64,000 nucleotides of DNA from contig WQYP01000003.1 in NCBI GenBank assembly GCA_009781185.1, positions 7,219 to 71,218 on the forward strand. Reading direction: 5' to 3'. The notes beneath the pieces were generated by a model. The model was not told the origin of the DNA. It ran no database searches and saw only the letters and a program-made list of their open reading frames with translations. A program made the translations under genes and the position numbers. Source of the DNA: Phycisphaerales bacterium. GTDB lineage: Bacteria > Planctomycetota > Phycisphaerae > WQYP01. This document shows, piece by piece, positions 566 to 54,125 of this stretch. Numbering within the stretch: position 1 is the stretch's first letter; each line of letters opens with the position of its first letter.

Positions 566-2824
566 ATGCTCGATCACTTGAACATCCTAGCATTCGGTTT
601 CCTGGCACCGTGGCTTTTTGCGGCGGGTGCGGCGGCGACTTCGATCCCGATCATTATTCATCTGCTCAATAAGCGGAAGTTCCGGATCATTGTCTGGGCG
701 GCGATGGAGTTTTTGCTCGCGGCGCAGCGGCGAAACGCACGGCGCCTGCGATTTCGGCGATGGCTGCTGCTGGCGGTCAGATGCCTCGCATTGCTGGTGC
801 TCGCGGCGGCGGTCGGGCAAATGGTGCTCGACAACACGGCGATCGGATCGCTCTTCGGCGGACAACGCGCCATCATCGTGATCCTCGATGATTCCTATTC
901 CATGGCATATCAACGGCCCGGCACAGCGTCGGCCTTTGAGCGTTCCAGAAAACTGCTCAAGGACTGGCTCGGAAAACTTTCATCGTCAGATAAGGTAATG
1001 TTGATCCGTGCAAGTCGCGGAGGCGTACAGGCGGGCAATCGCGCAACGTCCGATCATGCCGGGCTCGAGTCGCAGATCAAGGCAATGGAAGTTTCGGACG
1101 CGGGGACCGATCTTGCCGCAGCATTGGACCAGGCGGCCGAAACGCTCAAGGAGATGGAACGGACCGTCCCGACGCGTGATGTGATGCTGCTGACCGATTT
1201 TTCGAACAGCTCAATCCAGGATCCTCCGAAAGGCATCGAGCAGACGCAGCGGGCGAGGAACCTGGAAGGCGAACGTCTGAAGAAAGCGGTAGAAACGGTC
1301 AAGGCTCACGCTACACAGTTCCGCGTTTTCGACCTTGGCACGGATGACCAAATGAACATAGCTGTGACAGATTTGAGGACGGAGCGGCCGGTAGTGATTG
1401 CCGGGCAGCCTTCAATTTTCAATGTTACGGTAATGAATGCGAAGCAGGATTCTGAGATCGATGTGCCGTTGACGATTTTTCTCGACGGTGTCGCGGTGCA
1501 GACGGAGAAGCTGCCGAAGCTTGAAGTTGGCAGTCCGCGAACGGTGCCGGTGAAGGTAATCGTTCCGACGCCGGGACGCCATTTGATCGAAGCGCGTATT
1601 CCTGACGAGATGGACTTTTTGCCGATCGACAACGTTCGGCATTTGATGATTGACGCGAGGCGAGAAATTCCGATCCTGCTGGTGGAAGGCGATCCCGGCG
1701 ACGGGGGGCGGACCAGTTGGGGCAGTACGTCCTACGTTCGCACGGCATTGCCGTCGGCGGCACAGTTGGGCGTTTTTTCCCGCAAAACGATCACCGATCT
1801 CGAACTGCCCACGGTTCCGCTGGAGCCGTTCTCGGTGGTGATTCTTACGGATTCGCCGGCCCCTCGCAGCGCTGCCTTGCGGGAAAATCTGCGGAAATAC
1901 GTGGACAAGGGCGGCGTGCTGATGATCTTCCCCGGAGCGAATACCAACGTCCGTGAGATGAATGATTTGCTGGGAGACGCGGGCATACAGTTGCTGCCGG
2001 CGACGCTTGGCCAACCGATGGATATGGGTACAGGCGTCGGCTTCGATATAGCAGGCAGCAATCATCCGGTGATTGATAAACTTAAACGCCATTTTGAAGG
2101 GGGCGAAGATCCTGGGTTTAAGTCGGTGCAGACGATGCGTTATTTGAAGCTGGGGGTGCCGCTGGATGGCAGTGCGGAGGTGATTCTGAACTATGCAAAC
2201 GGAGGGAGAGGTGGCGAAACGAAAAACGACGCGGCGGTGGTGATGCGGCGTGTTGAAAAGGGGAAGGTGGTGCTATTTGCCAGTTCCGCAGATACAAGTT
2301 GGAATACATGGGGCGGGAAGCCGTCGTTTTTGCCGTTTATGGTGGAACTGGTTTATCACACGATTTCCGCGGATGGCGGCGGGCTGACGCTGAGTGTGGG
2401 CGATCAGATCAATCTGCCGGGCGAAGTCGAAAATCCGGGCGCGTGGACGGGGCCAAGAGGTATTCGATTCAGCGTCAATTCAGCGTTGGACCAGGACGGT
2501 CGGCCGCGACTGACGAGCATGGGGCTTCCGGCGGCCGGTGTTTATGGGCCTGAAGGACGCGCCGTAGTTGCGGTAAATCCTGATGCGGAGGAAGTTGATA
2601 TTCGCCATGTGAGCGCTGCTCAGATGGCCGGGGCAATGGGTATTCAGAGCGACGAGATTGTCACCCCGTTAGCCCCCGGCTCTGCCGGGGGTTCGGCCTG
2701 GCTTGTCGCGGCGGACTCGAAAAACACTGGCGGCTCGGAGCTCGCCCGGAATCTGCTCCTCGCCGCCTTCGCTTTGTTCCTTGTTGAAACTTTGCTCGCT
2801 CGTATATTCTCGGTTTATCGATGA
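566..2824 (+). CDS. BatA-like aerotolerance-operon protein: N-terminal double-TM domain plus von Willebrand factor A domain.
   Basis: N-terminus MLDHLNILAFGFLAPWLF…HLLNKRKFRII…RRWLLLAV matches the BatA N-terminal double-TM domain. VWA MIDAS-like motif IIVILDDSYSM. 752 aa. Start is 2 nt after the upstream stop. Confidence 0.75.
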   Translation: MLDHLNILAFGFLAPWLFAAGAAATSIPIIIHLLNKRKFRIIVWAAMEFLLAAQRRNARRLRFRRWLLLAVRCLALLVLAAAVGQMVLDNTAIGSLFGGQRAIIVILDDSYSMAYQRPGTASAFERSRKLLKDWLGKLSSSDKVMLIRASRGGVQAGNRATSDHAGLESQIKAMEVSDAGTDLAAALDQAAETLKEMERTVPTRDVMLLTDFSNSSIQDPPKGIEQTQRARNLEGERLKKAVETVKAHATQFRVFDLGTDDQMNIAVTDLRTERPVVIAGQPSIFNVTVMNAKQDSEIDVPLTIFLDGVAVQTEKLPKLEVGSPRTVPVKVIVPTPGRHLIEARIPDEMDFLPIDNVRHLMIDARREIPILLVEGDPGDGGRTSWGSTSYVRTALPSAAQLGVFSRKTITDLELPTVPLEPFSVVILTDSPAPRSAALRENLRKYVDKGGVLMIFPGANTNVREMNDLLGDAGIQLLPATLGQPMDMGTGVGFDIAGSNHPVIDKLKRHFEGGEDPGFKSVQTMRYLKLGVPLDGSAEVILNYANGGRGGETKNDAAVVMRRVEKGKVVLFASSADTSWNTWGGKPSFLPFMVELVYHTISADGGGLTLSVGDQINLPGEVENPGAWTGPRGIRFSVNSALDQDGRPRLTSMGLPAAGVYGPEGRAVVAVNPDAEEVDIRHVSAAQMAGAMGIQSDEIVTPLAPGSAGGSAWLVAADSKNTGGSELARNLLLAAFALFLVETLLARIFSVYR
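2668..2693. repeat. 26-nt palindrome gttagcccccggctctgccgggggtt inside the BatA-like CDS.
   Basis: Identical 26-mer at 34250-34275 (inside the GT39 CDS). The core also forms the rpsA terminator (34536-34554), and a variant lies at 28998-29020. Confidence 0.75.
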
Positions 2825-11343: not shown

Positions 11344-11512
11344 CAAGAAGATGACGACTAGATTGCGGACAAATCGGGTGGCCCCGGTAGGGGCCGGAGC
11401 TTTTAGCCCACGGCAAGCGGCGGCAGCCGCGCCGCCGTGGGTCATCATCACCCACAAAAACGCCGTCGCCCCGGCAGGGGCGAAAGTCCGCGTTATTTTT
11501 CGGAGCAGCCAT

Positions 11513-18412: not shown

Positions 18413-18506
18413 CAAGGAGCACCACGTGGCAACGCGGTGGTGATTGGGAATGCAAGGACAAACCTCCGCGTTACCACGCGGTGCTCCTTGTCACTTTGTC
18501 ATCTTG
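18413..18506. terminator. Long imperfect inverted repeat (~25-bp stem) between convergent genes; candidate bidirectional terminator. Flanked by gacaagg direct repeats that extend into both stop codons.
   Basis: caaggagcaccacgtggcaacgcggtgg … ccgcgttaccacgcggtgctccttg. Direct repeats gtgacaaggtgacaagg on one side and gtcactttgtcatcttgtcac on the other. Confidence 0.5.
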
Positions 18507-23092: not shown

Positions 23093-25117
23093 TTATTCAA
23101 GCGTTGGGGCGAAATGTTGCCAGAAAAGTTCAAGGGTGAGCAGGGCGAAGAGGCGGTGGGTGTGGTCGCGAAGAGCGGTGTGGTGTTCGTGGAGGAGGCG
23201 TTCGATGATTTGGGGTTGTAGATAGTTTCTCGTAAAGGATTGTTGCGAGAGGAGCAGATCGGTGAGCGGTGCGCGCAGGTCGCCCCCCCCCTGATTGTTA
23301 AACCATTGGCCGATGGGGACGCCGAAGCCTTTTTTGCGGCGGTGGAGGACGGCGGGTGGGAGATCGTTTGCGAAGAGTTGGCGGAGCGGGGCCTTTCCTT
23401 GGCCGTTGTGGATGAGAGCGGAATCGGGAAAGGAGTTGCCCAGTTCGACGATGCGGTGGTCGAGGAAGGGGGAGCGGACTTCGAGGGCGTCGCCGCTTGC
23501 TGAGCACATGGAGGCGGAGTCAACTTTCCAGAGAACGTCGCCGGGGAGATATTCGGATTGGTCGCGGAGCATGGCGAGGCGGAGCGGAGAAACATCATCC
23601 GGAAGACCGTACTCTTCGGGAAGCGGGAAGTAATCCAGCACCGGCTCGCCCATAAGTTCTTCGATAAATGGGCGTGGGAAAATGTCGACGAGGCGAGTGT
23701 ATTGTTCGGAGGGAATCTTGGATTTGGCGGCGGCGGCGAGGCGGCGGTAACGCTCTCTTTTGGAAAGAGAGCCCAAAGGGGAGGATTGGGGGAGAAATTT
23801 AACGAGGGGGCGGAAGCGGTTGAGGAGAATCATGGCGCGGTAGCGATCGTAGCCGGCGAAGAGTTCGTCGGCACCGTCGCCGGAGAGAGCGACGGGGGCC
23901 CTCCCCCCTACTTGGCGGGCGGCTCGGGAGAGGTGGTAGGTGGGGAGGATGGAGGAGTCGGCGAAGGGTTGGCCGAGGGATTTTTGCATGAGGAGACTGA
24001 GCGTGGCGAAAACGTCTTGCCTGGCGTGGACGGTGAGTTGGGTGTGGCGGGATTGGATTTTTTGTGCGACGGCCTGGGCGTATGGAGATTCGTCGAAGTC
24101 GGACTCTGTAAAGCCGACGGAGACGGTTTGGATGGGATCGCCGCCGGCTCTTTGGACGGCATCCTGGGCGAGCGTTGCGATGATGGAGGAATCGATGCCG
24201 CCGGAAAGGAAACAGGTGATGGGTGTATCGGCGATGAGTTGCGAGGAAACGGCAAGAGTGAGATTCTCGCGAAGATTTTCGATTTTCGATTTTCGATTTT
24301 CGATTTTTGATGTGGGTGTCCAGTAGCGGTCGCCGTCGAGAAGGTCATTTTGGAGGCGGAGCCAAGCGCCGGGGAGAAGTTGGTTCACGTCGCGGAAGAT
24401 GGTTTGCGGAGCGGGGAAGTAGCCAAGCAGAAGGTAGAGAGCGATTTGTTCTTTGGGGACGCGGCGGGGGACTTCGGGCCAGGCGAGGACGGAGGGGATG
24501 GTGGAGCCGAAGACAAGGCCGTCTTCGAGAATGGCGTAGAAGAGCGGTTTTTGGCCCATGCGATCGCGGGCGAGGAAAAGGGTGTGTTTCTGCCCTCCCC
24601 CTTGTGCCATCGGAGCCGCGACCGTAAGGGAGCGACCCCGCGGTAATGCGTCGGGAGAGCCGGTCGCTCCCTCACGGTCGCGGCTCTGATAGTCTGCGCT
24701 GCGTGTGTCCCAGATGGCGAAGGCGAACATGCCCAAGAGTTTGGTGGGGAGGTCGGTGCCCCACTGCTCCCAGCCGTGGACGAGGACTTCGGTGTCGGAA
24801 TGGTCGGATTTGAAGATATGTCCGTGGGATTGGAGTTCGCGGCGGAGTTGTGCGTGGTTGTAGATTTCGCCGTTGAAGACAACATGGACATTATTGGCTT
24901 CGTTAGCCATGGGTTGGTGGCCGCCGGAGCGGTCGATGATGGCGAGACGGGAATGGAGGAGTGCGGCGTGATTGTCGGCGAAGAGGCCGTGGCCGTCGGG
25001 ACCGCGATGAGCGATGGCTTGCGACATAGCCATGAGCGGTGCGAAACTGGAGGGGCGGGGGCCCCAGGGGGGCGGGCGGGAGGAGAGGTATTTGATGATG
25101 CCGGCGATGCCGCACAT
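23093..25117 (-). CDS. asnB: Asparagine synthase (glutamine-hydrolysing).
   Basis: N-terminal MCGIAGI Ntn-amidotransferase start; PP-loop FLSGGIDSS; 674 aa. Carries two in-frame foreign inserts: the palindromic element at 24608-24690 and the gattttc heptamer array at 24274-24309. Confidence 0.85.
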   Translation of the reverse strand: MCGIAGIIKYLSSRPPPWGPRPSSFAPLMAMSQAIAHRGPDGHGLFADNHAALLHSRLAIIDRSGGHQPMANEANNVHVVFNGEIYNHAQLRRELQSHGHIFKSDHSDTEVLVHGWEQWGTDLPTKLLGMFAFAIWDTRSADYQSRDREGATGSPDALPRGRSLTVAAPMAQGGGQKHTLFLARDRMGQKPLFYAILEDGLVFGSTIPSVLAWPEVPRRVPKEQIALYLLLGYFPAPQTIFRDVNQLLPGAWLRLQNDLLDGDRYWTPTSKIENRKSKIENLRENLTLAVSSQLIADTPITCFLSGGIDSSIIATLAQDAVQRAGGDPIQTVSVGFTESDFDESPYAQAVAQKIQSRHTQLTVHARQDVFATLSLLMQKSLGQPFADSSILPTYHLSRAARQVGGRAPVALSGDGADELFAGYDRYRAMILLNRFRPLVKFLPQSSPLGSLSKRERYRRLAAAAKSKIPSEQYTRLVDIFPRPFIEELMGEPVLDYFPLPEEYGLPDDVSPLRLAMLRDQSEYLPGDVLWKVDSASMCSASGDALEVRSPFLDHRIVELGNSFPDSALIHNGQGKAPLRQLFANDLPPAVLHRRKKGFGVPIGQWFNNQGGGDLRAPLTDLLLSQQSFTRNYLQPQIIERLLHEHHTALRDHTHRLFALLTLELFWQHFAPTLE
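24608..24690. repeat. Palindromic element (family 'cagagccgcgaccgtNagggagcgac') inserted in-frame in asnB.
   Basis: ggagccgcgaccgtaagggagcgacc…ggtcgctccctcacggtcgcggctct. Translated on the minus strand as …QSRDREGATG…GRSLTVAA…. Confidence 0.8.
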
Positions 25118-28051: not shown

Positions 28052-28690
28052 TTATTGGGGTTTGATAGCGGCGATGGCATTAAAAGTGCGGCCTTCGGCG
28101 ATGTACTTACGCTCGAAATTGCTGCCGACGAGGGAACGGGGGGGGGAGCCGGGCGGGAGTGGGAGTGGGGAATCGAAGGGGACGATTTGCAGGTCGCTTT
28201 GGGCGCTGAGCATCTGCTGCATGTGGGCGAAATAGTCGGCGTGATCGGTGACGAGGCGTAACTTGCCGCCGGGGATGAGAATGCGATGAACTTCCTTGAG
28301 GAAGGGGAGCTGAATGAGGCGTCGTTTGTGGTGGCGAGTCTTGGGCCAGGGGTCGGGGAAGTAGATGTGGAGGGCGGTCAGAGAGGCTGCGGGAACGTGG
28401 CAGCGGATCCACCAGAATGCCTCGGCTTTCACGAGACGCGCGTTTTCCATCTTGTGGCGGCGAAGACGATCGGCGGCAAAATCGGCGTAGGCGCTGGCGT
28501 ATTCGATGCCGACGAAGTTGGACTGCGGCATGGCACCCGCGATGGCCAGCAGAAAAGTGCCCTTGCCGGAGCCGATCTCCAACTCGACGGGATGATCGTT
28601 GGCGAAGATTTCACGCCAGGCAATGGTGCCGACCTCGTCGGGAATCTCGAGGAGGAAATGCTGAGGATCAAGGTTGGGTCGTAGCGGCAT
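28052..28690 (-). CDS. trmB: tRNA (guanine46-N7)-methyltransferase.
   Basis: …VELEIGSGKGTFLLAIA… SAM-binding motif, …IYFPDPWPK…, …FERKY… . Start at MPLRPN. A heptamer array lies immediately 5' of the start. Confidence 0.8.
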   Translation of the reverse strand: MPLRPNLDPQHFLLEIPDEVGTIAWREIFANDHPVELEIGSGKGTFLLAIAGAMPQSNFVGIEYASAYADFAADRLRRHKMENARLVKAEAFWWIRCHVPAASLTALHIYFPDPWPKTRHHKRRLIQLPFLKEVHRILIPGGKLRLVTDHADYFAHMQQMLSAQSDLQIVPFDSPLPLPPGSPPRSLVGSNFERKYIAEGRTFNAIAAIKPQ

Positions 28691-29108
28691 AGTCGATTTT
28701 CGATTTTTGATTTTCAATTGTAGGGCAAAAATAAAAATGCCGCCACGGGGCTGCCGAGTGGGGCGCGACAGCTTGCGTACAGGCAAAGTGGGAACCCGTA
28801 CGGTGGCGGCGAGGATCGAAACCTCACAAGTCAAGCCAATAGACGCAAAACTTGTGAAAATAATTGACTTGTCACTGCTCGATCAATCCAATGACTTGAC
28901 GATGACCTTAAAAGCTACCCGCAGAAAATCGCTTCGTCAACCGTTTCTTGGTCAATTCTTAATCACTTCTTCAGGGGAATCGGTGAGGGCAATCATTGGA
29001 TGTCCGCCCCCGGCTCTGCCGAGGGCTCGCACGCCGGGAATGCTCCTTCCGCCATCACATCACCGGCATAACCCAATGGCACTCAATTGGGCGCGGTTCC
29101 GGTGAGCG

Positions 29109-31865
29109 TTATGACCGACGTCGCCGGGCGAGCAGGCCCACCGCCCCCAGCCCCAGCAGCGCCAGACTCGTCGGTTCCGGCACCAGCGCGAACTGACCGT
29201 TCTGGCTCAGCACCGCCCAGCTCCAACCCACTCCCTGACCGTCAATGTAATAGCCCCAACTGCCCACTGGCACGTCGCTCAAGCCGCCATTGTCGTTCAA
29301 GAATTCCTCGAGGCTCAAGTTCTCGTGGAATTCGCTGGGATCTCCGACGTACCCCCAGTTATCGAAGCTGACCATGTAGGGGAGTTCGCCTATCGCAAGA
29401 TTGATATCACCGAGATTGAAGGAGATTTCCAGGGCGTATTTGCCACCGAAAGCCTCGGCGGCACCGGTGACGTTGACAACGTCGGAGATCAGTGCCTTCT
29501 CGGTGGTGCTGAAGATGCCACTGGGATCGCCGATGTTGCCAGGGTAAACTTCGTCGGTCATGCGAGCTCGCCATTCCATGGTGACTTGCCCGTCATCGCT
29601 GGCGTTGCCGATGATGGTGGCCGTGGTGCCGACCATGGCAGCGCCTTGGTCGCTGCCGGTCGTTCCCGCAACGGTGGAGGAGAAGCTGTTCAATCCGGCT
29701 TTGACCGCCTTGACGTCCGGGGTGCCGAAGGTGTGACGATCATTGCTGTTATCGGCGAGGATCGGACCGCCGGGACCGCCGCCGCCGTTGACCTCGTAAG
29801 CGAAGAGGATTTGCCCATTCCCATTGTCTGTGATGCTGTAGTTTTTGAAGTCAATGCCGCTCCAGCTTGTGCCGCCAAGAACGATGGAGCCGGGGGTGCC
29901 GCCATAAGTCGTATCCACAAAGCCCGACACGTTGCTGTAGGTGAACAGCGTGAAAGAGCCTTCCGCTCCCGGCGCGAACGCGGAAGTGCCGCCCACCACG
30001 TTCAGGGAGACGGTACCGGGGAAGGCCAGCGTGCCGCCGACGACTGTAATGCTGCTGGGAGTTGCCGTGTTAAAGGCATAATCAAGAGTAGCGCCATCGC
30101 TGAGCGTCAACCCGCCAGCGCTGTTGAATGCCGCATTGTTCAGGGCGCTGAAAGTCAGCGTGCCCGCCGGAGCGAGGGTACCGTTGACGCTGAAGGGGGA
30201 GCCCGTCTGCCCATAGACCTTACCGGAGCCAGCGAGAGTCTGGCTGGAGGGAGTCGCAAAGTTGGCGATGCTGGAAACATCGAAGACCGCTCCACTGCTG
30301 ATGTCGATCTTCTCCGATTTTGCAATGGTATTGATGCCTGTGATCTTCAGTATGCCTTCCTGGATGACAGTCGCACCGGTGTAGGCGTTGGCAGAATGGC
30401 TAAGGGTCAGGGTACCGGTGCCGACTTTGATCAGTGACGCCGTGGTATCCAGCGTGATTGGCGTACCCGAATTAACGACAGTCGAACCGATGTTGGCGAT
30501 TCTTCCCGCGAAGCTGGAGTTGCCGGGTTGGCCGGGATTGCCGATGGTAAGCGTTTGCCCATCGCCGATTTCGATCAAATCACGAATATCGTTGCCGTAC
30601 CCGGATGTTGTCGGTGTTAGCTGATAGATGTGCCCGGAGCTTGGTTGTCCATCGCCATCTTTGAGCACGATATGACAGTTCGCCGTGAAAGTGGTTGGTC
30701 CAGTGCCAAGCCCTTCGCCGTAGAACTGGAGAACTAACCAAGGAGTAGAGCCATTATTGGTAGTCATCGTGACGCCGCCGGTGAAATTGGGATTATTTGC
30801 TCTTGTAATAACAAGCGACTTTCCCGCGGAGATTTTTCCGTCGCCGGTGATCTCGCCGGAGAAGGTGAAGCTTGCCGGTGCGGAGGAGGAGGCGTGCGAG
30901 AGAGTGAGGGTAGTTCCGCTGGCGATACTGACATCGCCAGACAATGTAACGTTTCCTATGGATGCCGCGTTGATCACCTTGTTGGTCCCGCCGCCCGCCA
31001 CGACAATCGGAGTGGTGAACGTGTAATCGGTGTTGCCACTACCACTTATGTAAATCCGAGCCTCACTGCTGTCCGCCCCCAGGTAAATGGCCGTCGCATT
31101 GGGGAGCCGCATGGTGGTGTTGCTGCCGTTTTCAAATGTGAGAATACCACTCATGACATGGATCGTCCCGGTGAAATCCGGGCTGGCCACACTATCAAAC
31201 CGCAAAGCGGTGTTGCTGTTTTGGGTGATATCGGCAACGTTGGCGCCGATGACACCTCTTACAGAGGTGCCAGCAGAGCCCGTCGTCGTCAGGCCGACAC
31301 CGTTACTGTTAATAGCACTGGCGGAGACAGCCGTGCCGGAGTTGGTGATGGTATTTGCCGGATCGTACGACGCGAAGTTAATGCCGCCGGAGAGAATGAG
31401 GGAATTGGCTGAATTGTTGGCGATCGTCAAAGCGGTGTCCTGGATGGAAATGGGAGCACTGATGATGTCGGCAAAGCTGCCCACGACATGGGTGATGTAA
31501 GTGCCACTGCCGCCGCCGTTAAGGGTTAAGTTATTCGCTGCACTGCCACCGAGCGTGAAGGCGGCAGTGGAGGACGAATCGATGATGAGCGTTTTCGCGA
31601 TGCCCGGGGAGCTGATGGTGGCGCCTGTCGTGAAAGTGACATCATCGCCGACGTCGGGGTAACTGAGGGTGGGTGACCCGCCGGTGAGAGCCCAGTTATT
31701 TGTGTCATTCCACGCGCCCGCGGCTCCCCCTTGCCAAGTGAAAGTTGCCGCCGAAGCCGCCTGCAGTGCCATTGCCGCGGCAATGGCGGCCACGCTTAGG
31801 ATGCCGTACTTTTTGAACGAGCGACTGCCGAAGGTTTTGTGACTGGCCATTTTGATGATCTCCAA
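29109..31865 (-). CDS. PEP-CTERM-anchored secreted protein with autotransporter-like beta-helix repeats (918 aa).
   Basis: Signal peptide; many …GTLTLS…/…GGTL… beta-strand repeats. C-terminus …ALVPEPTSLALLGLGAVGLLARRRRS is the canonical PEP-CTERM sorting signal (VPEP, TM helix, Arg cluster). Confidence 0.75.
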   Translation of the reverse strand: MEIIKMASHKTFGSRSFKKYGILSVAAIAAAMALQAASAATFTWQGGAAGAWNDTNNWALTGGSPTLSYPDVGDDVTFTTGATISSPGIAKTLIIDSSSTAAFTLGGSAANNLTLNGGGSGTYITHVVGSFADIISAPISIQDTALTIANNSANSLILSGGINFASYDPANTITNSGTAVSASAINSNGVGLTTTGSAGTSVRGVIGANVADITQNSNTALRFDSVASPDFTGTIHVMSGILTFENGSNTTMRLPNATAIYLGADSSEARIYISGSGNTDYTFTTPIVVAGGGTNKVINAASIGNVTLSGDVSIASGTTLTLSHASSSAPASFTFSGEITGDGKISAGKSLVITRANNPNFTGGVTMTTNNGSTPWLVLQFYGEGLGTGPTTFTANCHIVLKDGDGQPSSGHIYQLTPTTSGYGNDIRDLIEIGDGQTLTIGNPGQPGNSSFAGRIANIGSTVVNSGTPITLDTTASLIKVGTGTLTLSHSANAYTGATVIQEGILKITGINTIAKSEKIDISSGAVFDVSSIANFATPSSQTLAGSGKVYGQTGSPFSVNGTLAPAGTLTFSALNNAAFNSAGGLTLSDGATLDYAFNTATPSSITVVGGTLAFPGTVSLNVVGGTSAFAPGAEGSFTLFTYSNVSGFVDTTYGGTPGSIVLGGTSWSGIDFKNYSITDNGNGQILFAYEVNGGGGPGGPILADNSNDRHTFGTPDVKAVKAGLNSFSSTVAGTTGSDQGAAMVGTTATIIGNASDDGQVTMEWRARMTDEVYPGNIGDPSGIFSTTEKALISDVVNVTGAAEAFGGKYALEISFNLGDINLAIGELPYMVSFDNWGYVGDPSEFHENLSLEEFLNDNGGLSDVPVGSWGYYIDGQGVGWSWAVLSQNGQFALVPEPTSLALLGLGAVGLLARRRRS

Positions 31866-32380: not shown

Positions 32381-34339
32381 TCAGCCACTGGACGCCCCCC
32401 CGGCAAAGCCAGGGACTGACGAGGGTGCAGGTGGTGGGATGCGTTGCCAGACGCGGGTGCGCCAGGTGTTGTAGACGTAGAAACGCCATTCGAAATAGAG
32501 GCGATAGGATTTTTCTTCGACGAGTTTCCAGTTGGGGCCGAGCTTCAGGCTGAGGGATTCGGTGGAAAGCGATTCGGTGGCGGGGGTGAGGTCGCCGCAT
32601 TTGTCGGTGATGATGATGGTGTGGATTTCGGGGGTGGTACGTGTGCGGCGGAGGAAGTCGTGGAGGCGGGCGATCTCGTACATGCCGTAGGCGAAGTTTT
32701 GTTCGGGGAGGAAATAGCTGCCGTCGGACATGGGGCGGACGTGGCGTGCGAGTGCGTAGGTGACGGGGATCACGACGCCGGGAATGGTGAGATTTAAGTG
32801 TGCAACTGCGAGGGTTTTGCGGTTTTTGGCGTCGAAATAGTCGGGTTTTGTCGCGATTTGGGCCGCGATGTGAAAGGGGGGATTGCGATAGACGAAATAG
32901 TTGGAGCAGGCGGAGGCCAGGGATGCGGCGATGACGAAACTGATGGCGAGGGTCCGGACGGGCCAGGTGGGCAGGCGTCGGAGCGAGGCGGCCAGCCAGA
33001 GGATCAGCGGAGCAATGATCGCTCCGACGTATCGCGGTTCCCAGAGCGGAGAGATTTTGTCGTAGCTCTGCCAGACGACTTTGTACCAGGTGGAATCTCT
33101 TGGGATCCAGGTGAGGGCGAGGGCGGCGGGCGGGAGAAGGATCCAGAGGGCCAGCCACCATGAGGGGGAGAAGGGGAGAGGTGGGGAGGGGGATAGGGAG
33201 CGCCGTCGGCCTCGCCAAGGGATCAGGCCGAGGATGAGAATGGCGGCGAAAATCAGGGCAACGTAAAACTCCGCGACAGCGAGCCAAGGCATCGAGCGAG
33301 TGGCGGCGTGCAGGTTGAAGTCGGAGTTGCCCAGGTTGAACCAGGTGCGGACCATCGGGTCGGGCGGGTAGCTGGGGTAGAGGTAACCTAACAGGTGGGA
33401 GCAGGGGAGCGAGGCGATGGTTTTCCATGTCATGTCGGTGTAGCTGAGGACCCAGGAGAGGGTCGTGTCGCCGCGACGTTCGATGAGGCGGTCCCACCAG
33501 TAGGTGCCGTTGAGGTACCAGTAGATCGGCAGGAGCGACATGATGCCGGCGGCGAGGGCGAAAAGGGGGCCGTCAAGGCAGCGCAGGCGCGGACGCGTGA
33601 GCAGGAAGATCAGTTGCAGAGCGATCATGAACCAGGCGGTGGAGTGCATGGCGGTCATGACGAAGCCGGTGAGGACGTAGAGCGGGAACCATAACAGGTG
33701 CTTGTGCGTGGTCTGCCATTTGAAAAAGAGGGCGGCGTTGAGGATGAGGAAGAGCCACATCGGGCCGTACATTTTGATGTCACGCGAATAGTAGATGAGG
33801 TACGGATTGACGGCAGTGAGCAGGGCGGCGAGGAGAGCACCCCTGCGATCGGTGAACTGGCGTGCGAGGAAGTAGACGGCAAGGACGGTGAGCGTTCCGA
33901 GAATGGCGGTGAGGGATCGGGTGGCAAGTGGCGTGAGAGCGGTATAAGCGGGATTTGCGGCACTGCCGAGAATCTTGGTCCACCAGTGATCGGGGCTCAC
34001 GAAGTATTCGATGAAGAGCGTCCACCAGCGAAGGAGAGCGTACCAGCCGGGGGGGAAACCCTGATTGGAGAGCGAAGCGAGCATCTGCTGGAAATTGCCC
34101 TGAACGCGATTGACGGTGTAGGACTCGTCGGTCCAGTAGCACTGATAGGAGATGCGAAAGAATCGCAGGAAGGCGGCCAAAAGTGTGATGGCGGTGAGAG
34201 TCAGGGTGAGCTGTTTACGAGAAGGAAACCGCGGCCATGCGTTGGATGTGTTAGCCCCCGGCTCTGCCGGGGGTTGACTGGCAATTGCGATTGCACCTGG
34301 CATATCAGGCACCGGCGATGTCTGCGAGGCGATGGTCAT
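32381..34339 (-). CDS. Membrane glycosyltransferase family 39/83 (PMT_2, ArnT-like, dolichyl-phosphate-mannose-type).
   Basis: ~12 TM helices. N-terminal region …YTVNRVQGN…PPGWYALLRWW…AILGTLTVLAVYFLARQF…AVNPYLIYYSRDIKMY fits ArnT/PMT_2. Carries the 26-nt palindrome in-frame near its N-terminus. Confidence 0.55.
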   Translation of the reverse strand: MTIASQTSPVPDMPGAIAIASQPPAEPGANTSNAWPRFPSRKQLTLTLTAITLLAAFLRFFRISYQCYWTDESYTVNRVQGNFQQMLASLSNQGFPPGWYALLRWWTLFIEYFVSPDHWWTKILGSAANPAYTALTPLATRSLTAILGTLTVLAVYFLARQFTDRRGALLAALLTAVNPYLIYYSRDIKMYGPMWLFLILNAALFFKWQTTHKHLLWFPLYVLTGFVMTAMHSTAWFMIALQLIFLLTRPRLRCLDGPLFALAAGIMSLLPIYWYLNGTYWWDRLIERRGDTTLSWVLSYTDMTWKTIASLPCSHLLGYLYPSYPPDPMVRTWFNLGNSDFNLHAATRSMPWLAVAEFYVALIFAAILILGLIPWRGRRRSLSPSPPLPFSPSWWLALWILLPPAALALTWIPRDSTWYKVVWQSYDKISPLWEPRYVGAIIAPLILWLAASLRRLPTWPVRTLAISFVIAASLASACSNYFVYRNPPFHIAAQIATKPDYFDAKNRKTLAVAHLNLTIPGVVIPVTYALARHVRPMSDGSYFLPEQNFAYGMYEIARLHDFLRRTRTTPEIHTIIITDKCGDLTPATESLSTESLSLKLGPNWKLVEEKSYRLYFEWRFYVYNTWRTRVWQRIPPPAPSSVPGFAGGASSG

Positions 34340-34527
34340 GGAAGAGAAACGATGAGGAGGGAAAGTTATTGGGTATTGATGAAGAAGCCGGAAGCTGGAA
34401 GCCGGGAAAATTCGAAACTCGAAATTCGAAACAAATTCGAATGTTCGAATGACTGAAACAAGACTGCCTAAGATGCGTGGATTATTTTCTGTGATCAGTC
34501 GCGATGCAAATACCCAAGAGCATCCAT

Positions 34528-34556
34528 GAAAAACCCCCGGCAGAGCCGGGGGCTGA
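34528..34556 (-). terminator. Rho-independent terminator of rpsA (cccccggctctgccggggg + T5 on the minus strand).
   Basis: On the minus strand: cgtcagcccccggctctgccgggggttttt. It lies 28 nt after the rpsA stop codon. Confidence 0.65.
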
Positions 34557-34583
34557 CGATAGCTGCGATTGTTTTTTGGGGGG

Positions 34584-36320
34584 TTATTCGAGACCGCCTT
34601 TGTATTTTTTTGCGGGTTTGCCGTCTTCGGTGAGTTCGGGAGCGTCGGAGAGGTCGCCGCCGGCGCCCCATTGGGCGCGTTTGAGGGAGAGGCCGATCTT
34701 GCGGTCGTCGATGTCGACGCGGAGGATTTTGACTTCGACGTCGTCGCCGATCTTGACGACGTCGGTGGGGTTCTCGACTTTTTCGTCGGAGAGTTCGCTG
34801 ACGTGGAGGAGTCCTTCGAGGCCGGGTTCGAGTTCGACGAAGACGCCGAAGTTGGTGATCTTGGTGATCTTGCCTTTGACGATCATGCCGGGCTGATAGT
34901 TGGTGGGGATCGCGTGGAGCCAGGGGTCTTCGGTCATTTGCTTGAGGCCCAGGGCGACGCGGTTCTTTTCCTGGTCGACGGAGAGGACGACGCATTGCAG
35001 ATCGTCGCCTTTCTTGAGTACTTCGGAAGGATGGGCGACTTTTTTGGTCCAGGAGAGGTCGGAAACGTGCAGGAGGCCGTCGATGCCTTCTTCGATTTCG
35101 ACGAAGGCGCCGTAGTTGGTGAGGTTGCGAACTTTGCCGGTGATGACGGTACCGGGGGGATATTTCTCGGCGAGCAGCGTCCAGGGATTCGCTTCGGTCT
35201 GCTTCATGCCCAGCGAGATTTCCTGTTTGGTTTTGTTGACGTCGAGGACGACGACGTCGATTTCTTCGCCGACGCTGACCATTTCGCTGGGGTGGTTGAT
35301 GCGTTTGGTCCAGGACATTTCGGAGATGTGCACGAGTCCTTCGACGCCTTCCTCGAGCTTCACGAAAGCGCCGTACGACATGATGTTCGTAACGGCGCCC
35401 TTGACGCGTGTGCCTACCGGGTACTTCTCCTCGGCGTGCTCCCACGGAGAAGCTTGTTTCTGCTTGAGCCCAAGAGCGATCTTCTCCTTCTCCTTATCGA
35501 CGTTGAGCACGACGACTTCGAGTTCCTGATCGAGTTTGACCATGTCGGAGGGGTGATTAATGCGGCCCCAGGACATGTCGGTGATGTGGAGGAGACCGTC
35601 GACGCCACCGAGGTCGACGAAGGCGCCAAAGTCCGCGATGTTCTTGATGACGCCCTTGCGGGTCTGGCCGATCTGGATTTCGCCGAAGAGTTTTTGCTTG
35701 GCTTCGCCACGGAGTTTTTCGAGGAGCTTGCGGCGGCTGATGACGATGTTGCGGCGTTCGAGGTCGATCTTGAGAATCTCGGCGTCGATGATACGGCCGA
35801 TGTATTCGCCGATGTCGGCAGGGCGGCGGATGTCGACTTGAGAGGCGGGGAGGAAGACCGGAACGCCGACGTCGACAAGGAGGCCGCCTTTGATTTTGCG
35901 GGTGACTTTGCCTTGGACGGGGTCGCCTTCTTTTTTGGTTTCGATGATTTTGTTCCAGCCGGTGATGCGGTCGGCTTTGCGTTTGGAGATGACGACGAGG
36001 CCGGAGTCGGATTCGACTTGTTCAAGGAGGACGGTGACATCGTCGCCAACTTCGATGTCGGACATTTCTTCGGGGTCCCATTCGCGGGAGAGTGAGAGAA
36101 CGCCTTCGGACTTGAGGCCGATTTCGACGACGACGTCGTCGCCGTGGATGTTGACGATTTTGCCTTTGAGGATGGCGCCGTTGGCAAAGGAAGCGCCTGT
36201 GGAATCGAGCAGGGCGCCGATTTCCTTGTCGTCGAATTGATCCTGGAATTCCTGTTCGATAGCGGCCTGGGATTGCTGTTCGTCAAGGCCGAGTTCTTTC
36301 AGGAGGGCAAAATTAACCAT
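34584..36320 (-). CDS. rpsA: 30S ribosomal protein S1.
   Basis: Six S1 domains (repeating …GxxVxGxVxxIxxFGAFVxL… units). The ORF extends to 36344; start at MVNFALLKE preferred. Confidence 0.85.
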   Translation of the reverse strand: MVNFALLKELGLDEQQSQAAIEQEFQDQFDDKEIGALLDSTGASFANGAILKGKIVNIHGDDVVVEIGLKSEGVLSLSREWDPEEMSDIEVGDDVTVLLEQVESDSGLVVISKRKADRITGWNKIIETKKEGDPVQGKVTRKIKGGLLVDVGVPVFLPASQVDIRRPADIGEYIGRIIDAEILKIDLERRNIVISRRKLLEKLRGEAKQKLFGEIQIGQTRKGVIKNIADFGAFVDLGGVDGLLHITDMSWGRINHPSDMVKLDQELEVVVLNVDKEKEKIALGLKQKQASPWEHAEEKYPVGTRVKGAVTNIMSYGAFVKLEEGVEGLVHISEMSWTKRINHPSEMVSVGEEIDVVVLDVNKTKQEISLGMKQTEANPWTLLAEKYPPGTVITGKVRNLTNYGAFVEIEEGIDGLLHVSDLSWTKKVAHPSEVLKKGDDLQCVVLSVDQEKNRVALGLKQMTEDPWLHAIPTNYQPGMIVKGKITKITNFGVFVELEPGLEGLLHVSELSDEKVENPTDVVKIGDDVEVKILRVDIDDRKIGLSLKRAQWGAGGDLSDAPELTEDGKPAKKYKGGLE

Positions 36321-36731
36321 ATGCAGAGAAACCTTTCGTCTCACGCGGTCGGTCTTTTCCGCCTGTTACGGAACATCCGCAGCAAGCCGAAGTCACCCGC
36401 GCCGATCGCACGGCGGGCGCCCGCTGAGCGAGTGCCGATAGGCGCTCTGAAGACCCAGAGGGGAAACGAGTAAGTATAGCGGAGAGAGAGAGTTGGGGAA
36501 AGCGAGATGAAAAGAGCGGACTCGTAAAATTTGTAAAATGGGTGAAAGTCGTAAAATGCGTGGAGAGGGGGCGGAGCACCGCATGGTAATGCGGTGGTTG
36601 AATACCATGAGGCGGCCAAACCACCGCATTACCCTGCGGTACTCCCAAAGATGCAATCTTACGATACGGCTCTGATGATTTGCGGGACAATGCGTGGACG
36701 GCTATGGTTGCGTATATGAGGTGAATGGCTT

Positions 36732-38672: not shown

Positions 38673-39881
38673 ATGGATAAGGATGTTGTGGTGACGAACT
38701 TGGATGTACGGCCGTATGTGGAGACGCTCTTTGCAAGGGCGTTGGCGGAGGAGGCGTCGGATATTCATGTGGAGCCGACGGCAGATGGGGCGGAAGTGCG
38801 GTTGCGGGTGGATGGGCTGCTTCAGACGATTGATCGGATGACGGGGGAAATGGGGCGGAGTACGGTGTTGCGGCTGATGGTACTGGCACAGTTGTTGACG
38901 TATCGATTGGACATTCCGCAGGAAGGGCGGGTGACGTGGGAGGTGGGGCATCGGAGCCGCGACCGTGAGGGAGCGACGGGTGCCGATTCTGAGTCGCACG
39001 GTCGCTCCCTGACGGTCGCGGCTCTGAACTTCCCTGAGGAAATGGGAGGGAAGCGGATTGATTGTCGGTTAGCGATTATGCCCACGGCGCATGGGCTGCG
39101 GGCGGTGGTGCGGATGCCGGCGGATTTGGTGCAGCCCAAGTCGCTGGGAAGTTTGGCGTTGCCGGCGGCGGTGATGGGGGCGTTGGAGCGGTTTGCGAAG
39201 CACGACCAGGGAATGCTGCTGGTGACCGGACCGGCGGGGTCGGGCAAGACGACGACGATTTATGCATTGCTGGAGCATATCGCGGCGGGAACGGGGGGGG
39301 AGGCGAGCGGGTTGTCGATTATCAGTTTGGAGGATCCGGTGGAGCGGCTGTTGCCGGGGGTGACGCAGATCGAAGTGACGCCGCATGGGCAGTTGACGTA
39401 TGAGCGGGCGCTCAAGTCGATCTTGCGGCAGGATCCGCAGGTGCTGATGCTCGGGGAGATTCGGGATGTGGCGACGGCGTCGATCGCGGTGCAGGCGGCG
39501 TTGTCGGGACATCGGTTGATTGCGACGCTGCACGCCGGTGAACCGGCGATGGCGCTGGCGCGGCTGCTGGAGATGGGTATTGAACCTTATCAGTTGACCA
39601 GTAGTTTGTTTGGGATTTTGAGTCAGCGGCTGTTACGGAAGCGATCGTCAGCCTCCGCAAGCCGTTATCGTGGGCGGGTGCCGGTGGCGGAGTTCGCACA
39701 GCTTGATACGGACGTACGTGCGGCGGTCTTGCAACGAGCAGATGCAGATTCTTTGAAAAATAGATTTGCCCAACAATCCGGCTATGTTACGATGCGAACT
39801 GTAGCAGAAGATTTGGTGGCACGCGGTGTGACGGACGAGGAGGAAGTGCAACGGGTTCTGGGTTTAGTACAGCGATCGTGA
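38673..39881 (+). CDS. GspE/PilB-like secretion ATPase (short form lacking the N1 domain).
   Basis: Walker A GPAGSGKTTT; Asp/His boxes; …EGRV…RIDCRLAIMPTAHGLRAVVRM. The palindromic element is inserted in-frame at 38950-39028. Confidence 0.7.
   Translation: MDKDVVVTNLDVRPYVETLFARALAEEASDIHVEPTADGAEVRLRVDGLLQTIDRMTGEMGRSTVLRLMVLAQLLTYRLDIPQEGRVTWEVGHRSRDREGATGADSESHGRSLTVAALNFPEEMGGKRIDCRLAIMPTAHGLRAVVRMPADLVQPKSLGSLALPAAVMGALERFAKHDQGMLLVTGPAGSGKTTTIYALLEHIAAGTGGEASGLSIISLEDPVERLLPGVTQIEVTPHGQLTYERALKSILRQDPQVLMLGEIRDVATASIAVQAALSGHRLIATLHAGEPAMALARLLEMGIEPYQLTSSLFGILSQRLLRKRSSASASRYRGRVPVAEFAQLDTDVRAAVLQRADADSLKNRFAQQSGYVTMRTVAEDLVARGVTDEEEVQRVLGLVQRS
38950..39028. repeat. Palindromic element of the same family, in-frame in the gspE-like gene.
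   Basis: ggagccgcgaccgtgagggagcgac gggtgccgattctgagtcgcac ggtcgctccctgacggtcgcggctct, encoding …HRSRDREGATG…GRSLTVAA…. Confidence 0.8.
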
Positions 39882-41185: not shown

Positions 41186-42634
41186 TTGGTCCAGGACAGC
41201 CAAACGCCTCTGGAATACCAGACGCCAGTGCGGGTTGTGGCGTCCGACTTGCCGCTTTGGCAGCAGGCGCTGATGCTGCTGTTCGTGTGGGCACCGCTGG
41301 GGCTTGTTTTCGTGGCGATCGTGGGGGTGGTGATGGGAATGTCGTGCAGTTATATGGTGGGGCAGGTCGGGATGCCGATCGGGGTGCTGTTCTGTGCTTA
41401 CGCGATTTACCGGATGCAGCGTGCGCGGCGACGACGGCGGGCCATGGCGATCTTGTCATACGTGGAAACAGCGACGCGTCTCAATTTGTCGTTGAATGAA
41501 TACCTGCTGGCGGCGGAATTGAGCGAGCGCGGTGCGACGCGGGAAAGGTTAAGCGACCTGCGGCGACGGTTCATGAGCGGGGCCTCAATCTCCACAGCGT
41601 TATACGAAGCGGTGCCGGAGATGCCCGCTTCGATCATCGCCACCGCACGCGTCGGCGAATCGCTCGGACAGGTACAACCCACATTGCGGCGACTGGTCAA
41701 CGAGGTCGCCAGACCCACCCTTCCGCCCAATGAACGCATGCCGTTTTACTGGTTTTACGGCATCGGCTTGTGCGTGGCGGTCTTTAACCTCGCCGCATGG
41801 CTCATGGTGTACATCATGCCAAAGTTCAAGGAGATCTTCCGCGACTTCAGCTCCCGCGGCACCGGCGTGACCCTTCCACCGGCGACGGCAAACTTGATCG
41901 TTTTTTACGATCGCATGGGGGACATGGGAGTGGTGTTCTTAGTGATCGAGGCCGTGGTATTCCTGGGACTTGTCGGATGGCTGCTGGAGCGGGCGTTCAC
42001 GTTGCGGCGTGAATCGCAACGGCGTTTGGCGCTGATCGACAAAATGCTCTGGAACTTGCCGGTGCTGGGACGGCTGAATCGGGCAAGATCGATGAGCGAC
42101 ATTTGCAACGTGCTGGCGGAAAGCACGCGTGCAGGCATACCGCTGCCGCAGGCGCTGGAGCGTGCCGAGGATCTGAACATCAACAACGAAGCGAAGCGTC
42201 AGGTGAAGTTGTGGCAACAGGGCGTGACGTCCGGTCAATCGCCGGCGAAAGCGGCACAGGCGGCGAAAATGCCGGAACTGCTCGTCGGACTCATCAATCC
42301 CGCACAATCACAAAGCGGGCATGACGATCAGAGCCGCGACCGTGAAGGAGCGACAGGTGCTATGGAGGAGACGCTCAAGCGTGAACTCCGGGGTCGCTCC
42401 CTGACGGTCGCGGCTCAGAACCTGCATGCCGTCACCAACGTGTTTGAATTCCTGGCACGCTATTACCGCGGACAGTTCTCGCGGCTGATGATCACGCTGC
42501 AAGCCGCAAGCGAGCCGCTCCTGGTCATCGCCCTGGGCATCATGGTGGCGTGGATGACCATGACGGTGATCTCGCCGGTCGCGGCGCTGGTGCAAGCGAT
42601 CATCAAGGTATACTGGGGAGGGGACGTCTTATGA
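41186..42634 (+). CDS. Second GspF/PilC-like platform protein paralog.
   Basis: T2SSF-like repeats. The palindromic element is inserted in-frame at 42328-42418. Confidence 0.55.
   Translation: MVQDSQTPLEYQTPVRVVASDLPLWQQALMLLFVWAPLGLVFVAIVGVVMGMSCSYMVGQVGMPIGVLFCAYAIYRMQRARRRRRAMAILSYVETATRLNLSLNEYLLAAELSERGATRERLSDLRRRFMSGASISTALYEAVPEMPASIIATARVGESLGQVQPTLRRLVNEVARPTLPPNERMPFYWFYGIGLCVAVFNLAAWLMVYIMPKFKEIFRDFSSRGTGVTLPPATANLIVFYDRMGDMGVVFLVIEAVVFLGLVGWLLERAFTLRRESQRRLALIDKMLWNLPVLGRLNRARSMSDICNVLAESTRAGIPLPQALERAEDLNINNEAKRQVKLWQQGVTSGQSPAKAAQAAKMPELLVGLINPAQSQSGHDDQSRDREGATGAMEETLKRELRGRSLTVAAQNLHAVTNVFEFLARYYRGQFSRLMITLQAASEPLLVIALGIMVAWMTMTVISPVAALVQAIIKVYWGGDVL
42328..42418. repeat. 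Palindromic element of the same family, in-frame in the second gspF-like gene.
   Basis: agagccgcgaccgtgaaggagcgac …35-nt loop… ggtcgctccctgacggtcgcggctca, encoding …QSRDREGATG…GRSLTVAA…. Confidence 0.8.
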
Positions 42635-43992: not shown

Positions 43993-44150
43993 CTGGGCAA
44001 GGGGTGTGATCATCTTTTGTGGCAAATGGCGAAAATGGTTGAAAATCAGAGCCGCGAGCGTAAGCTCGCGCAGTGGTGATCACAATCGCACGGCGCGAGC
44101 TTACGCTCGCGGCTCTGATTTGCCACAAAAGATGGCCACACCCTGGGCAA
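43993..44150. repeat. Large nested palindrome (~65-bp arms); MITE/REP-like intergenic element.
   Basis: ctgggcaagg…catcttttgtggcaaat…cagagccgcgagcgtaagctcgcg // cgcgagcttacgctcgcggctctgatttgccacaaaagatgg…cttgcccag. The core shares the cagagccgcga start with the CDS-inserted palindrome family. Confidence 0.7.
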
Positions 44151-47346: not shown

Positions 47347-48108
47347 TTAATAGATCAGCGGCAGCCTCCTGGTTTTTTTCTCGTTGGCTTCGAGGATGGC
47401 GGGGGTAGGTGGGGTGAGTTCGATGGCGGTGATGTAGGTGATGTCTTTGAGCGTTTCGTCGAGTTTGCCGTGGTATTTTTTGTAGAGGGCGAGGGTGCGA
47501 CGTTTAGGGGGGGAGGCAGAGTCGGCAGTATAGATCGGGGCGACGACGGTACCTTCGATGGTTTGGTCGTTGAGGAGAGTGAATTGGTAGGCGAGTTCGA
47601 CGTTGGGATATTTTTTGCCGGAGTAGATTTTCTGGTCGGAGCCTTCCTTGAGCCAGCGCCAATCGTCTTCCATGGTTTGTGAGAGGACTTTCACGTCGAT
47701 GCGTTTGATCAGGGAGAGATCGATGTCGCGGTAGGTTTTGGTTTCCTCCAGCCAGACGCGGAAGGGGGTTTCGAGGGTGGTCCAGATTTGGCCTTCGACG
47801 GTGATGCCGTTGCTGAGTTTGACGGTGCCGGTGCGGGCTCCGGCGGGAGGCTTTTCGGTGAGGGTTCCGAGCGCGTCGGTTACGCCTTGGGTGGTGGGGG
47901 CGGTCGCTTCGGCAGGGGCTGTGGCAACGGGCGTGGTGGCGATATCGTTAACGTCGTCGTCGGCGAGGGTGAGTGAATTAGCCACAGACAGACACAGACA
48001 GACACGGACAAAATTCGAAATTCGAAATTCGAAATTCGAATTTTGTCCGTGTCTGTCTGTGGCTAATTTAGGTCGTCCGCAGGTTATAGTAGGGTGATTC
48101 TTGAGCAT
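47347..48108 (-). CDS. Hypothetical protein; start uncertain. The only in-frame ATG (48108) places a 90-bp palindrome inside the N-terminal coding region.
   Basis: High-GC3 coding signal from ~47975 down to 47347 with no ATG/GTG/TTG before the palindrome. ATG at 48108, or GTG at 47985 inside the palindrome, are the only candidates. The C-terminal 200 aa have no recognised domain. Confidence 0.35.
   Translation of the reverse strand: MLKNHPTITCGRPKLATDRHGQNSNFEFRISNFVRVCLCLSVANSLTLADDDVNDIATTPVATAPAEATAPTTQGVTDALGTLTEKPPAGARTGTVKLSNGITVEGQIWTTLETPFRVWLEETKTYRDIDLSLIKRIDVKVLSQTMEDDWRWLKEGSDQKIYSGKKYPNVELAYQFTLLNDQTIEGTVVAPIYTADSASPPKRRTLALYKKYHGKLDETLKDITYITAIELTPPTPAILEANEKKTRRLPLIY
47976..48068. 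repeat. Palindromic element: GACA/TGTC-rich arms flanking a gaaattc x4 heptamer array.
   Basis: attagccacagacagacacagacagacacggacaaa attcgaaattcgaaattcgaaattcgaa ttttgtccgtgtctgtctgtggctaat. Its right arm is identical over 24 nt to the element in the sufS-sufT spacer. Confidence 0.75.
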
Positions 48109-54099: not shown

Positions 54100-54125
54100 C
54101 CAGAAGAAAGGGTATCATTCCGCAC

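Follow-up and report, generated by a model that had tools for sequence, protein, structure and literature searches.

A 26-nucleotide palindrome inside two genes of a Phycisphaerales bacterium is probably a unit of a REP-like repeat family of Planctomycetota

The window analyzed here is a 64,000-nucleotide (nt) stretch from a Phycisphaerales bacterium (GenBank assembly GCA_009781185.1, contig WQYP01000003.1, positions 7,219 to 71,218 of the forward strand). Its subject is a 26-nt palindromic unit, GTTAGCCCCCGGCTCTGCCGGGGGTT, which lies within two unrelated coding genes and recurs with one mismatch just beyond a third, rpsA. One host gene encodes a protein with a BatA N-terminal domain and a VWA domain, the other a family 39 glycosyltransferase (GT39). 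The genes and copies concerned are as follows, numbered from the first letter of the window:

566..2824, plus strand: host gene 1, protein with a VWA domain and an N-terminal BatA domain, 752 amino acids (Pfam BatA 2.7e-14, VWA_2 1.8e-11)
2668..2693, plus strand: intact unit in the BatA/VWA gene, sense, read as PLAPGSAGGS (residues 701-710)
29002..29027, plus strand: decayed copy, GTCCGCCCCCGGCTCTGCCGAGGGCT, 85% identical, intergenic
32381..34339, minus strand: host gene 2, family 39 glycosyltransferase (PMT_2), 652 amino acids (Pfam PMT_2 3.3e-9)
32395..32420, minus strand: decayed copy, GTCAG plus TCCCTGGCTTTGCCGGGGG, within the GT39 C-terminal tail, read as SVPGFAGG
34250..34275, plus strand: intact unit, antisense to the GT39 gene; in reverse orientation on its mRNA, where it encodes QPPAEPGAN (residues 22-30)
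34529..34557, minus strand: one-mismatch unit (GTCAG) plus T5, terminator-like hairpin 26 nt past the rpsA stop codon
34584..36344, minus strand: rpsA, six S1 domains (Pfam S1 5.6e-100, 6 stretches)

Two copies of the unit in the 64-kb window were exact at 26/26 positions (2668-2693 and 34250-34275, both plus strand), and a third (34532-34557, minus strand) matched at 25/26, the sole mismatch being GTCAG for GTTAG. Dinucleotide-preserving shuffles of the window gave a 26-mer match in 0/100 cases, with three copies observed against none expected, and the 19-nt core at three mismatches or fewer gave eight matches against 0.09 expected. The total for the unit was three intact and two decayed copies. 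The decayed copy at 29002-29027 (core 29007-29025) lies 84 nt downstream of a PEP-CTERM gene (29109-31865, minus strand), in reverse orientation to its transcription, and the core of the decayed copy in the GT39 tail spans 32397-32415 on the minus strand. The original prediction had reported an identical 26-mer in two unrelated coding sequences, and this was confirmed, both copies being exact and both coding. The variant that it had placed at 28998-29020 also exists, although at 29002-29027, and the decayed copy at 32395-32420 was absent from its list.

In the unit, a GTYAG head is followed by a perfect G+C stem of 8 bp, closed by an unpaired 3-nt loop (TCT), and then by a TT(CG) tail; it thus has the stem-loop and the size (a palindrome of 20-40 nt) by which a repetitive extragenic palindromic (REP) element is recognized. 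RNA folding predicted the hairpin for all copies, the decayed copy at 29002-29027 included. The only inverted pair in the window is formed by the copies at 34250 and 34532, which are 256 nt apart. As a separate observation, an identical 8 nt, TTGGATGT, precedes the copies at 34250 and 29002 (34239-34249 and 28992-29001); this preference was not seen in the repeat family at large and may be chance or a small local duplication.

Analyses of the two host genes indicated that both exact intragenic copies are truly coding, and the earlier placement of both within coding sequences holds, with protein homology continuing in frame on either side of each copy. The protein identical to the product of the open reading frame (ORF) at 566-2824 is recorded as a BatA domain-containing protein of a Phycisphaerales metagenome-assembled genome (MAG). 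Its frame runs through the repeat into a C-terminal transmembrane segment (LARxFSVYR) conserved in 39/39 aligned homologues, and the next gene overlaps its stop codon. For the GT39 gene, the start at Met1 is supported by a nearby SP[IV]P motif common to several orthologues; the NCBI gene call begins at Met13, likewise upstream of the repeat, and no in-frame ATG, GTG or TTG occurs between the repeat and the first transmembrane helix. A mis-join is unlikely because a second, separate assembly of this population has contigs (L121 and L123) that were 100% identical across both exact-copy sites.

The GT39 sites are in parts of the protein that vary. The N-terminal tail holding the exact copy differs in length among homologues, ahead of a conserved WxRFPS motif, and the C-terminal tail, past a conserved WRTRVW motif, varies among orthologues in both length and sequence. 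The copy in this C-terminal tail (VPGFAGG) and the BatA copy (APGSAGG) share a reading frame of the unit. Four of its six frames are open (APGSAGGS, PPALPGV, PPAEPGA[DN] and NPRQSRGL), and the remaining two hold a stop codon made by TTAG or CTRA. Since the peptides from the four open frames are rich in Pro, Gly, Ala and Ser, copies landing in frame in flexible linkers or tails would be tolerated and simply translated, as probably happened at one site of the BatA-like gene and at two of GT39.

The comparison with orthologues, which had been put forward as a check, was run, and the nearest relatives of both host genes had no copy at these sites. The BatA repeat occupies a hypervariable linker between a GI(D/Q)xxxI motif and the C-terminal helix, the most variable stretch of the protein, and this linker is four residues longer in the window protein than in all 39 aligned orthologues. 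The nearest BatA relative (locus L122, 72% identity) reads ...DLGAAPRELEAKASVAGVKSSGGSELARN... in the correct frame, and its DNA has no hairpin. At the GT39 orthologue loci L197 and L198 no copy was found anywhere within four mismatches. Judged by these nearest orthologues, which have no hairpin in either host gene, the intragenic copies are acquisitions specific to this lineage. A lack of further copies, together with orthologues sharing the same codons, had been named as the outcome that would argue for coincidental conservation; neither was found.

Two further observations concern the BatA gene. In the assembly holding L122, the closest BatA orthologue and the next gene (4990-5290 and downstream) are broken by frameshifts, because of which the database protein P0002 has a false C-terminus. 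We also considered that the window gene might hold a full doublet with a decayed second unit, as its TTCG...CTCGAA resembles a doublet spacer described below; this was rejected because the stretch encodes a conserved GGSELARN segment common to orthologues.

A scan with the 19-nt core, covering one genome per species, identified at least 120 stretches, which were sorted by their flanks into three groups. The source MAG was not among the matches listed, and the genome and metagenome counts given here are lower bounds. Group 3 comprised 41 sites in 35 stretches, and among the matches listed 33/35 of these stretches were from Planctomycetota (Pirellulales, Planctomycetaceae, Lacipirellulaceae, Phycisphaeraceae and Sedimentisphaerales), with several MAGs contributing 2-5 copies each. 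The group was defined by AG directly before the core, and its G at -1 and A at -2 are therefore at 100% by construction and no independent finding. At the free positions there was C or T at -3 (96%), T at -4 (75%, with G at 10%) and T at +2 (86%), and the flanks beyond were unrelated. The resulting consensus, (G)TYAG-hairpin-TT, is the unit of the window. Most group 3 sites had no long ORF spanning them, and many lay 18-45 nt downstream of a same-strand ORF. With the full 26-mer, a metagenome scan identified at least 73 contigs, many of them with doublets, and a scan of viral contigs gave one match in 2.9 million contigs, from which we conclude that the unit is not phage-borne.

The doublets found at related loci are inverted pairs with their heads outside, 32-81 nt apart. 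In seven of them, which come from one lineage in related samples, the two units are separated by a common spacer of 36 nt, TTCGAAC...CTCCGAA (69-94% identity), and the outer flanks are at background identity (45-61%). Spacers shared between unrelated flanks indicate that doublets of about 90 nt were copied as a unit, as in REP doublets forming hairpins (REPINs).

Searches for a known identity of the family were made in two ways. Rfam, run at gathering thresholds on the window and ten loci, assigned no RNA family to any hairpin, the only match being a TPP riboswitch in L006, and a full-text literature search for the unit's sequence gave no occurrence. The repeat family was not found described in the literature searched; it probably belongs to a known kind, the REP-like elements. 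A hidden C-terminal ORF, with the TYAG head as its stop codon (CTRA on the other strand), was rejected as an explanation of the conserved head, as the flanks are unrelated. Separately, six Bradyrhizobium genomes (L005, L019, L055, L070, L074 and L104) have the 19-mer in one conserved context, ATCATGACGTTG-core-ATTTTGTTTGG, which suggests a terminator inherited by orthology and not a dispersed repeat.

Fetched loci were also screened for ORFs spanning the unit, and Pfam was run on ten such ORFs. In DnaE, a doublet lies in frame inside HHH_6, so that the match to the 90-position model extends over 123 residues. A class I aminoacyl-tRNA synthetase has the unit in frame with its catalytic domain matched in two pieces, a methionyl-tRNA synthetase has it in frame between the catalytic and tRNA-binding domains, and a GT4 glycosyltransferase between its two domains. 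In addition, the domain of a PfkB kinase is split by an in-frame doublet, and a methyltransferase and a hexapeptide transferase also carry the unit or doublet in frame. Intragenic copies are a recurrent habit of this repeat family. For other REP families, both positions downstream of ORFs and intragenic copies at termini and flexible linkers, including those of replication and repair genes, have been documented (PMC3733652).

The copy past rpsA has the anatomy of an intrinsic terminator. TTTTT (34529-34533) directly follows the hairpin, which begins 26 nt past the stop codon of the ORF at 34584-36344, and the RNA was predicted to fold into a 10-bp stem of eight G-C pairs extended by A-U and G.U; with 61 nt of context the folding energy was -26.4 kcal/mol (z = -3.5). 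Just beyond it is a promoter-like site (34510-34481) for the next gene, GT39. The earlier description of the same core plus T5 as the rpsA terminator stands as to its anatomy. Only the hairpin at 34529-34557 combines a G+C stem-loop with a U-tract past a stop codon: on the BatA-like mRNA the unit is followed by UUCGG, on the GT39 mRNA its reverse orientation is followed by CUAAC, and the decayed copies likewise have no U-tract.

It had been proposed that hairpins inside genes should cause pausing or termination unless bypassed. As neither exact copy has a U-tract and both are translated, presumably under ribosome coverage, intrinsic termination at the intragenic copies would not be expected. 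Downstream of genes, a transcribed hairpin could act as a terminator where T residues follow, as they do past rpsA, whose copy is a putative terminator by its sequence, and could act as a protective 3' stem-loop where they do not. Phylum-wide, a run of at least three T residues follows only about one copy in three, and many copies are more likely to be 3' stem-loops than full terminators.

The other two groups of the 19-nt core scan, from many phyla, proved to be the two ends, left and right, of a single IS200-like insertion sequence (IS). At the left end, GGTAAA-hairpin-ACTCCCAGAGTTTGACA... precedes a gene matching Y1_Tnp at 1.4e-35; at the right end, the C-terminus of the gene (...LDQLNMW) is followed by further hairpins and then by CTTTGAGCGGCTCAC..AAAG-hairpin-ATACTTAC. 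In complete elements, the left and right hairpins are about 600-640 bp apart. The 19-nt hairpin of the unit, CCCCCGGCTCTGCCGGGGG in GTYAG-CCCCCGGCTCTGCCGGGGG-TT, is identical to both subterminal hairpins of this element. Compensatory stem variants occur among the IS200-like ends (CCTCCGG...CCGGAGG and CCACCGG...CCGGTGG), and because of these changes the hairpin is considered a selected structure, as expected for a recognition site of a Y1 transposase. The copies in the window have neither left-end nor right-end IS flanks. The elements were seen at L004, L017, L082, L084, L100, L106, L120 and about 60 other loci of the genome scan, and one with a frameshifted tnpA was in a Planctomycetota MAG (L062). 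At L095 (3700-3975, minus strand) both ends stand 245 nt apart with no gene between them, which looks like a miniature non-autonomous derivative.

Based on these direct observations, namely of a repeat family and its distribution, of orthologues without copies, of copies that are coding and of a hairpin identical to that of IS200 ends, we consider it likely that the 26-mer is the unit of a REP-like element family of Planctomycetota, dispersed in its genomes, translated where it falls in frame and probably spread by a Y1 transposase. Its units would have spread, singly or in inverted doublets about 90 nt long, to numerous unrelated sites, mostly intergenic ones downstream of genes. Because the unit hairpin is identical to IS200-type subterminal hairpins, spread in trans by a Y1 (HUH) single-strand DNA transposase, either IS200 TnpA or a relative resembling a REP-associated tyrosine transposase (RAYT), is the most likely route; we infer both the copying of the Planctomycetota unit by such an enzyme and the act of transposition itself. 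A relationship with IS200/IS605 ends and mobilization by RAYTs are generally assumed for REPs (PMC3733652; PMC6006769). The original prediction of a mobile terminator-like REP is supported by the dispersal to many unrelated loci, mostly downstream of genes, by the orthologues without copies and by the terminator anatomy past rpsA; its expectation of pausing or termination at the intragenic copies, which have no U-tract, is not supported. Very recent transposition, its other suggestion, is not supported, as the exact 26-mer recurs in at least 73 metagenome contigs and many genomes. The identity of the two copies does not date any event because it reflects a conserved family consensus.

Several findings weigh against this interpretation. 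Neither the window nor the Planctomycetota-type loci yielded a gene for a Y1 transposase or RAYT, the search covering fragments of about 0.5 Mb in which a single-copy Y1 gene would rarely be caught. The IS200 TnpA profile matched only IS-type loci and nothing in the window or any Planctomycetota-type locus; a RAYT motif screen (HUH plus YxxxNP) of all fetched DNA gave only one fragment, at the Acidobacteriota locus L106; and between the two doublets of L029, where a RAYT was sought, there were a cardiolipin synthase and other genes and no Y1 gene. The 19-mer common to the unit and the IS200 ends could reflect convergence on a strong G+C hairpin. The head, (G)TYAG, differs from the GTAG or GT[AG]G of classical REPs, there is no close doublet of the unit in the window, and the source genome was represented by 64 kb plus 7 kb. 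The BatA linker has gained 12 nt (four residues), compared with the nine residues expected from a clean 27-nt insertion, so that either the event was not a simple insertion or this fast-evolving linker has changed since; the relatives are too distant to reconstruct the event. Lastly, a consensus promoter and terminator scan did not list the rpsA hairpin, probably because the A-U and G.U extension of the stem uses up two of the five T residues, and the terminator call therefore rests on direct reading and folding.

Among other explanations, the one to which we give most weight, while still considering it unlikely, is that no dedicated transposase took part: hairpins would have seeded new copies during replication through recombination, template switching or gene conversion, with the copies kept as a useful RNA or DNA hairpin, for example as a protein binding site. 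The lack of a transposase nearby, the linker gain that does not fit a clean insertion of 26-27 nt, and the report of CGTC-type REPs without a dedicated transposase (PMC3733652) are all in keeping with such a process. Against it, the hairpin is the IS200 end hairpin recognized by Y1 transposases, and doublets were dispersed as units in the manner of REPINs. We regard as improbable that the copies are convergent terminator hairpins, each having arisen locally by selection at a gene end with no copying between sites. Many copies do lie just past ORF ends, the convergent-gene pairs in L029 and L073 could be two separate terminators, and the Bradyrhizobium terminator, which is orthologous, contains the identical 19-mer. 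However, identity across dozens of unrelated sites reaches the unpaired positions (the GTYAG head, TCT loop and TT tail), copies occur inside coding regions, where terminators are not selected, many have no T-run, and doublets share their spacers while their flanks are not shared.

Less probable still is an artifact of assembly or annotation, through contigs mis-joined at a repeat or ORFs over-extended across hairpins. The source is a MAG, contigs of the second assembly break beside other repeats, and N-terminal REPs are often extragenic on closer reading, through misannotation (PMC3733652). These points are countered by the in-frame protein homology on both sides of each site, by the 100% identity of the second assembly, and by the absence of an alternative in-frame start between the hairpin and the first GT39 transmembrane segment. 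Least credible of all is selection at the protein level for a short Pro/Gly-rich motif, suggested by the common frame of the BatA copy (APGSAGG) and the decayed C-terminal copy of GT39 (VPGFAGG). The exact copies are read on opposite strands into unrelated peptides (PLAPGSAGGS and QPPAEPGAN), all their synonymous positions are identical, most members of the family are intergenic, and at least four frames are used elsewhere.

Beyond the interpretation of the 26-mer as a REP-like unit probably spread by a Y1 transposase, we speculate, with much less confidence, that a single hairpin serves a whole phylum (Planctomycetia and Phycisphaerae), in REPs whose hairpin is the one recognized by an IS200-type Y1 transposase and that are copied in trans by IS200 TnpA or a domesticated relative, act as standard modules at gene ends, and repeatedly colonize linkers in essential proteins, DnaE and aminoacyl-tRNA synthetases among them. 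If this speculation is correct, then together with a second repeat family these genomes would parallel, in free-living bacteria, the selfish DNA that Rickettsia carries inside genes.

This second palindromic family, CnGA-GCCGCGA[C/G]CGY..., has 13 copies in the window against 0.3 expected, mostly as inverted doublets. Its copies were placed as follows:

24609-24690, 38951-39027 and 42323-42420: second-family copies
near 9185, 9219, 42989, 44047-44117, 56333, 56485 and 32061: further second-family copies

Two conserved enzymes carry second-family doublets in frame. An asparagine synthase (AsnB) has about 37 extra residues where a solved homologue has its flanking positions only 3 residues apart, and a type II/IV secretion ATPase has 32 extra residues where the solved PilF has none; a T2SSF protein apparently also carries such a doublet. 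Each of these insertions is read as SRDREGATG...GRSLTVAA. The CnGA foot matches high-copy structures described as flanking class 3 Y1 transposase genes in Planctomycetes (PMC6006769), a match that we treat as a lead only. With the decayed GT39 tail copy counted, as many as six in-frame repeat copies lie within coding sequence in 64 kb, and five of these sites are a variable region or an insertion by alignment to Pfam, orthologues or solved structures. The BatA and GT39 case is one example of a genome-wide habit.

Other repeats were also present in the window. An 84-nt repeat (10154-10237 and 11364-11447, 90% identical) has two G+C hairpins and occurs in neighboring ORFs, a prenyltransferase-like one and one encoding an NPCBM domain, in each case about 10 nt in from the annotated 5' end; it could be either a shared leader or a repeat swallowed by the ORF calls. 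Intergenic tandem heptamers, TTCGAAA/CTCGAAA, occur at 8219-8261, 24265-24319, 28679-28719, 34404-34432, 48007-48041 and 63106-63132, one tract being between the rpsA hairpin and the GT39 start. Further short repeats, all apparently intergenic, were TGTCTGTG...GGCTAATT, AGAAGCCAGTAGCCAG and GACAAGGT tracts (a 47-nt inverted pair), at these positions:

47976-48010, 57104-57146 and 58892-58925: short repeats
54074-54116 and 57587-57629: short repeats
18395-18508: short repeats

The second-assembly contigs L123 and L121, at 100% identity to the window, end at about 10733 and about 32140, near repeat copies, which suggests that the repeats fragment short-read assemblies.

Together, these data turn the puzzle of a terminator inside genes into the probable footprint of a mobile repeat rather than a regulatory device, and guard against reading attenuation or programmed bypass into the two host genes. 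They define a repeat family of Planctomycetota with a concrete, testable link to IS200-type single-strand transposases. In addition, peptides encoded in frame by repeats in conserved enzymes affect gene calling and protein family alignments, and the repeats affect metagenome assembly through contig breaks.

Among known systems, the intrinsic terminators resemble the rpsA copy in its 8-10-bp G+C stem, 3-nt loop and T5. The intragenic and decayed copies differ from them in having no U-tract, and what is common to the sites is sequence, through a repeat family, and not mere shape. Rickettsia palindromic elements (RPEs) are palindromic repeats that lie in frame in coding genes, housekeeping genes included, and are translated as an extra peptide. 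They differ from the present unit in size and sequence, RPEs being about 100-150 bp and unrelated, compared with 26 nt for the unit and about 90 nt for the doublet. Palindromic repeats in frame in coding genes, again including housekeeping genes, and translated, are also known as the intragenic REPs of Opitutus terrae (PMC3733652).

The IS200/IS605 elements with their Y1 TnpA share with the unit the identical 19-nt hairpin of their subterminal ends. The window copies have neither their flanks nor a tnpA, and the IS200-like ends are in direct orientation, in contrast to the inverted doublets of Planctomycetota; the unit shares its hairpin with IS200 ends and is not itself an IS end. The REP/REPIN systems with RAYTs of E. 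coli and Pseudomonas, including the GTAG REPs of Di Nocera et al. (2013, PMC3733652), differ from the Planctomycetota unit in its perfect stem, its invariant 19-mer across two classes of the phylum and its lack, among the loci fetched, of a flanked RAYT gene. The inverted doublets typical of REPINs were seen at related loci and not in the window, and the intragenic REPs GTAG-20 and GTAG-21 of R. baltica encode peptides different from those of the present unit (PMC3733652 supplement). The likeness to these systems is nonetheless broad (PMC3733652): a short stem-loop unit of 26 nt with a conserved unpaired head, dispersed in many copies that tend to lie downstream of ORFs, inverted doublets with their heads outside and 20-100 bp apart, a G.U-compatible stem extension suggesting a role as RNA, and occasional in-frame copies at the termini and linkers of proteins.

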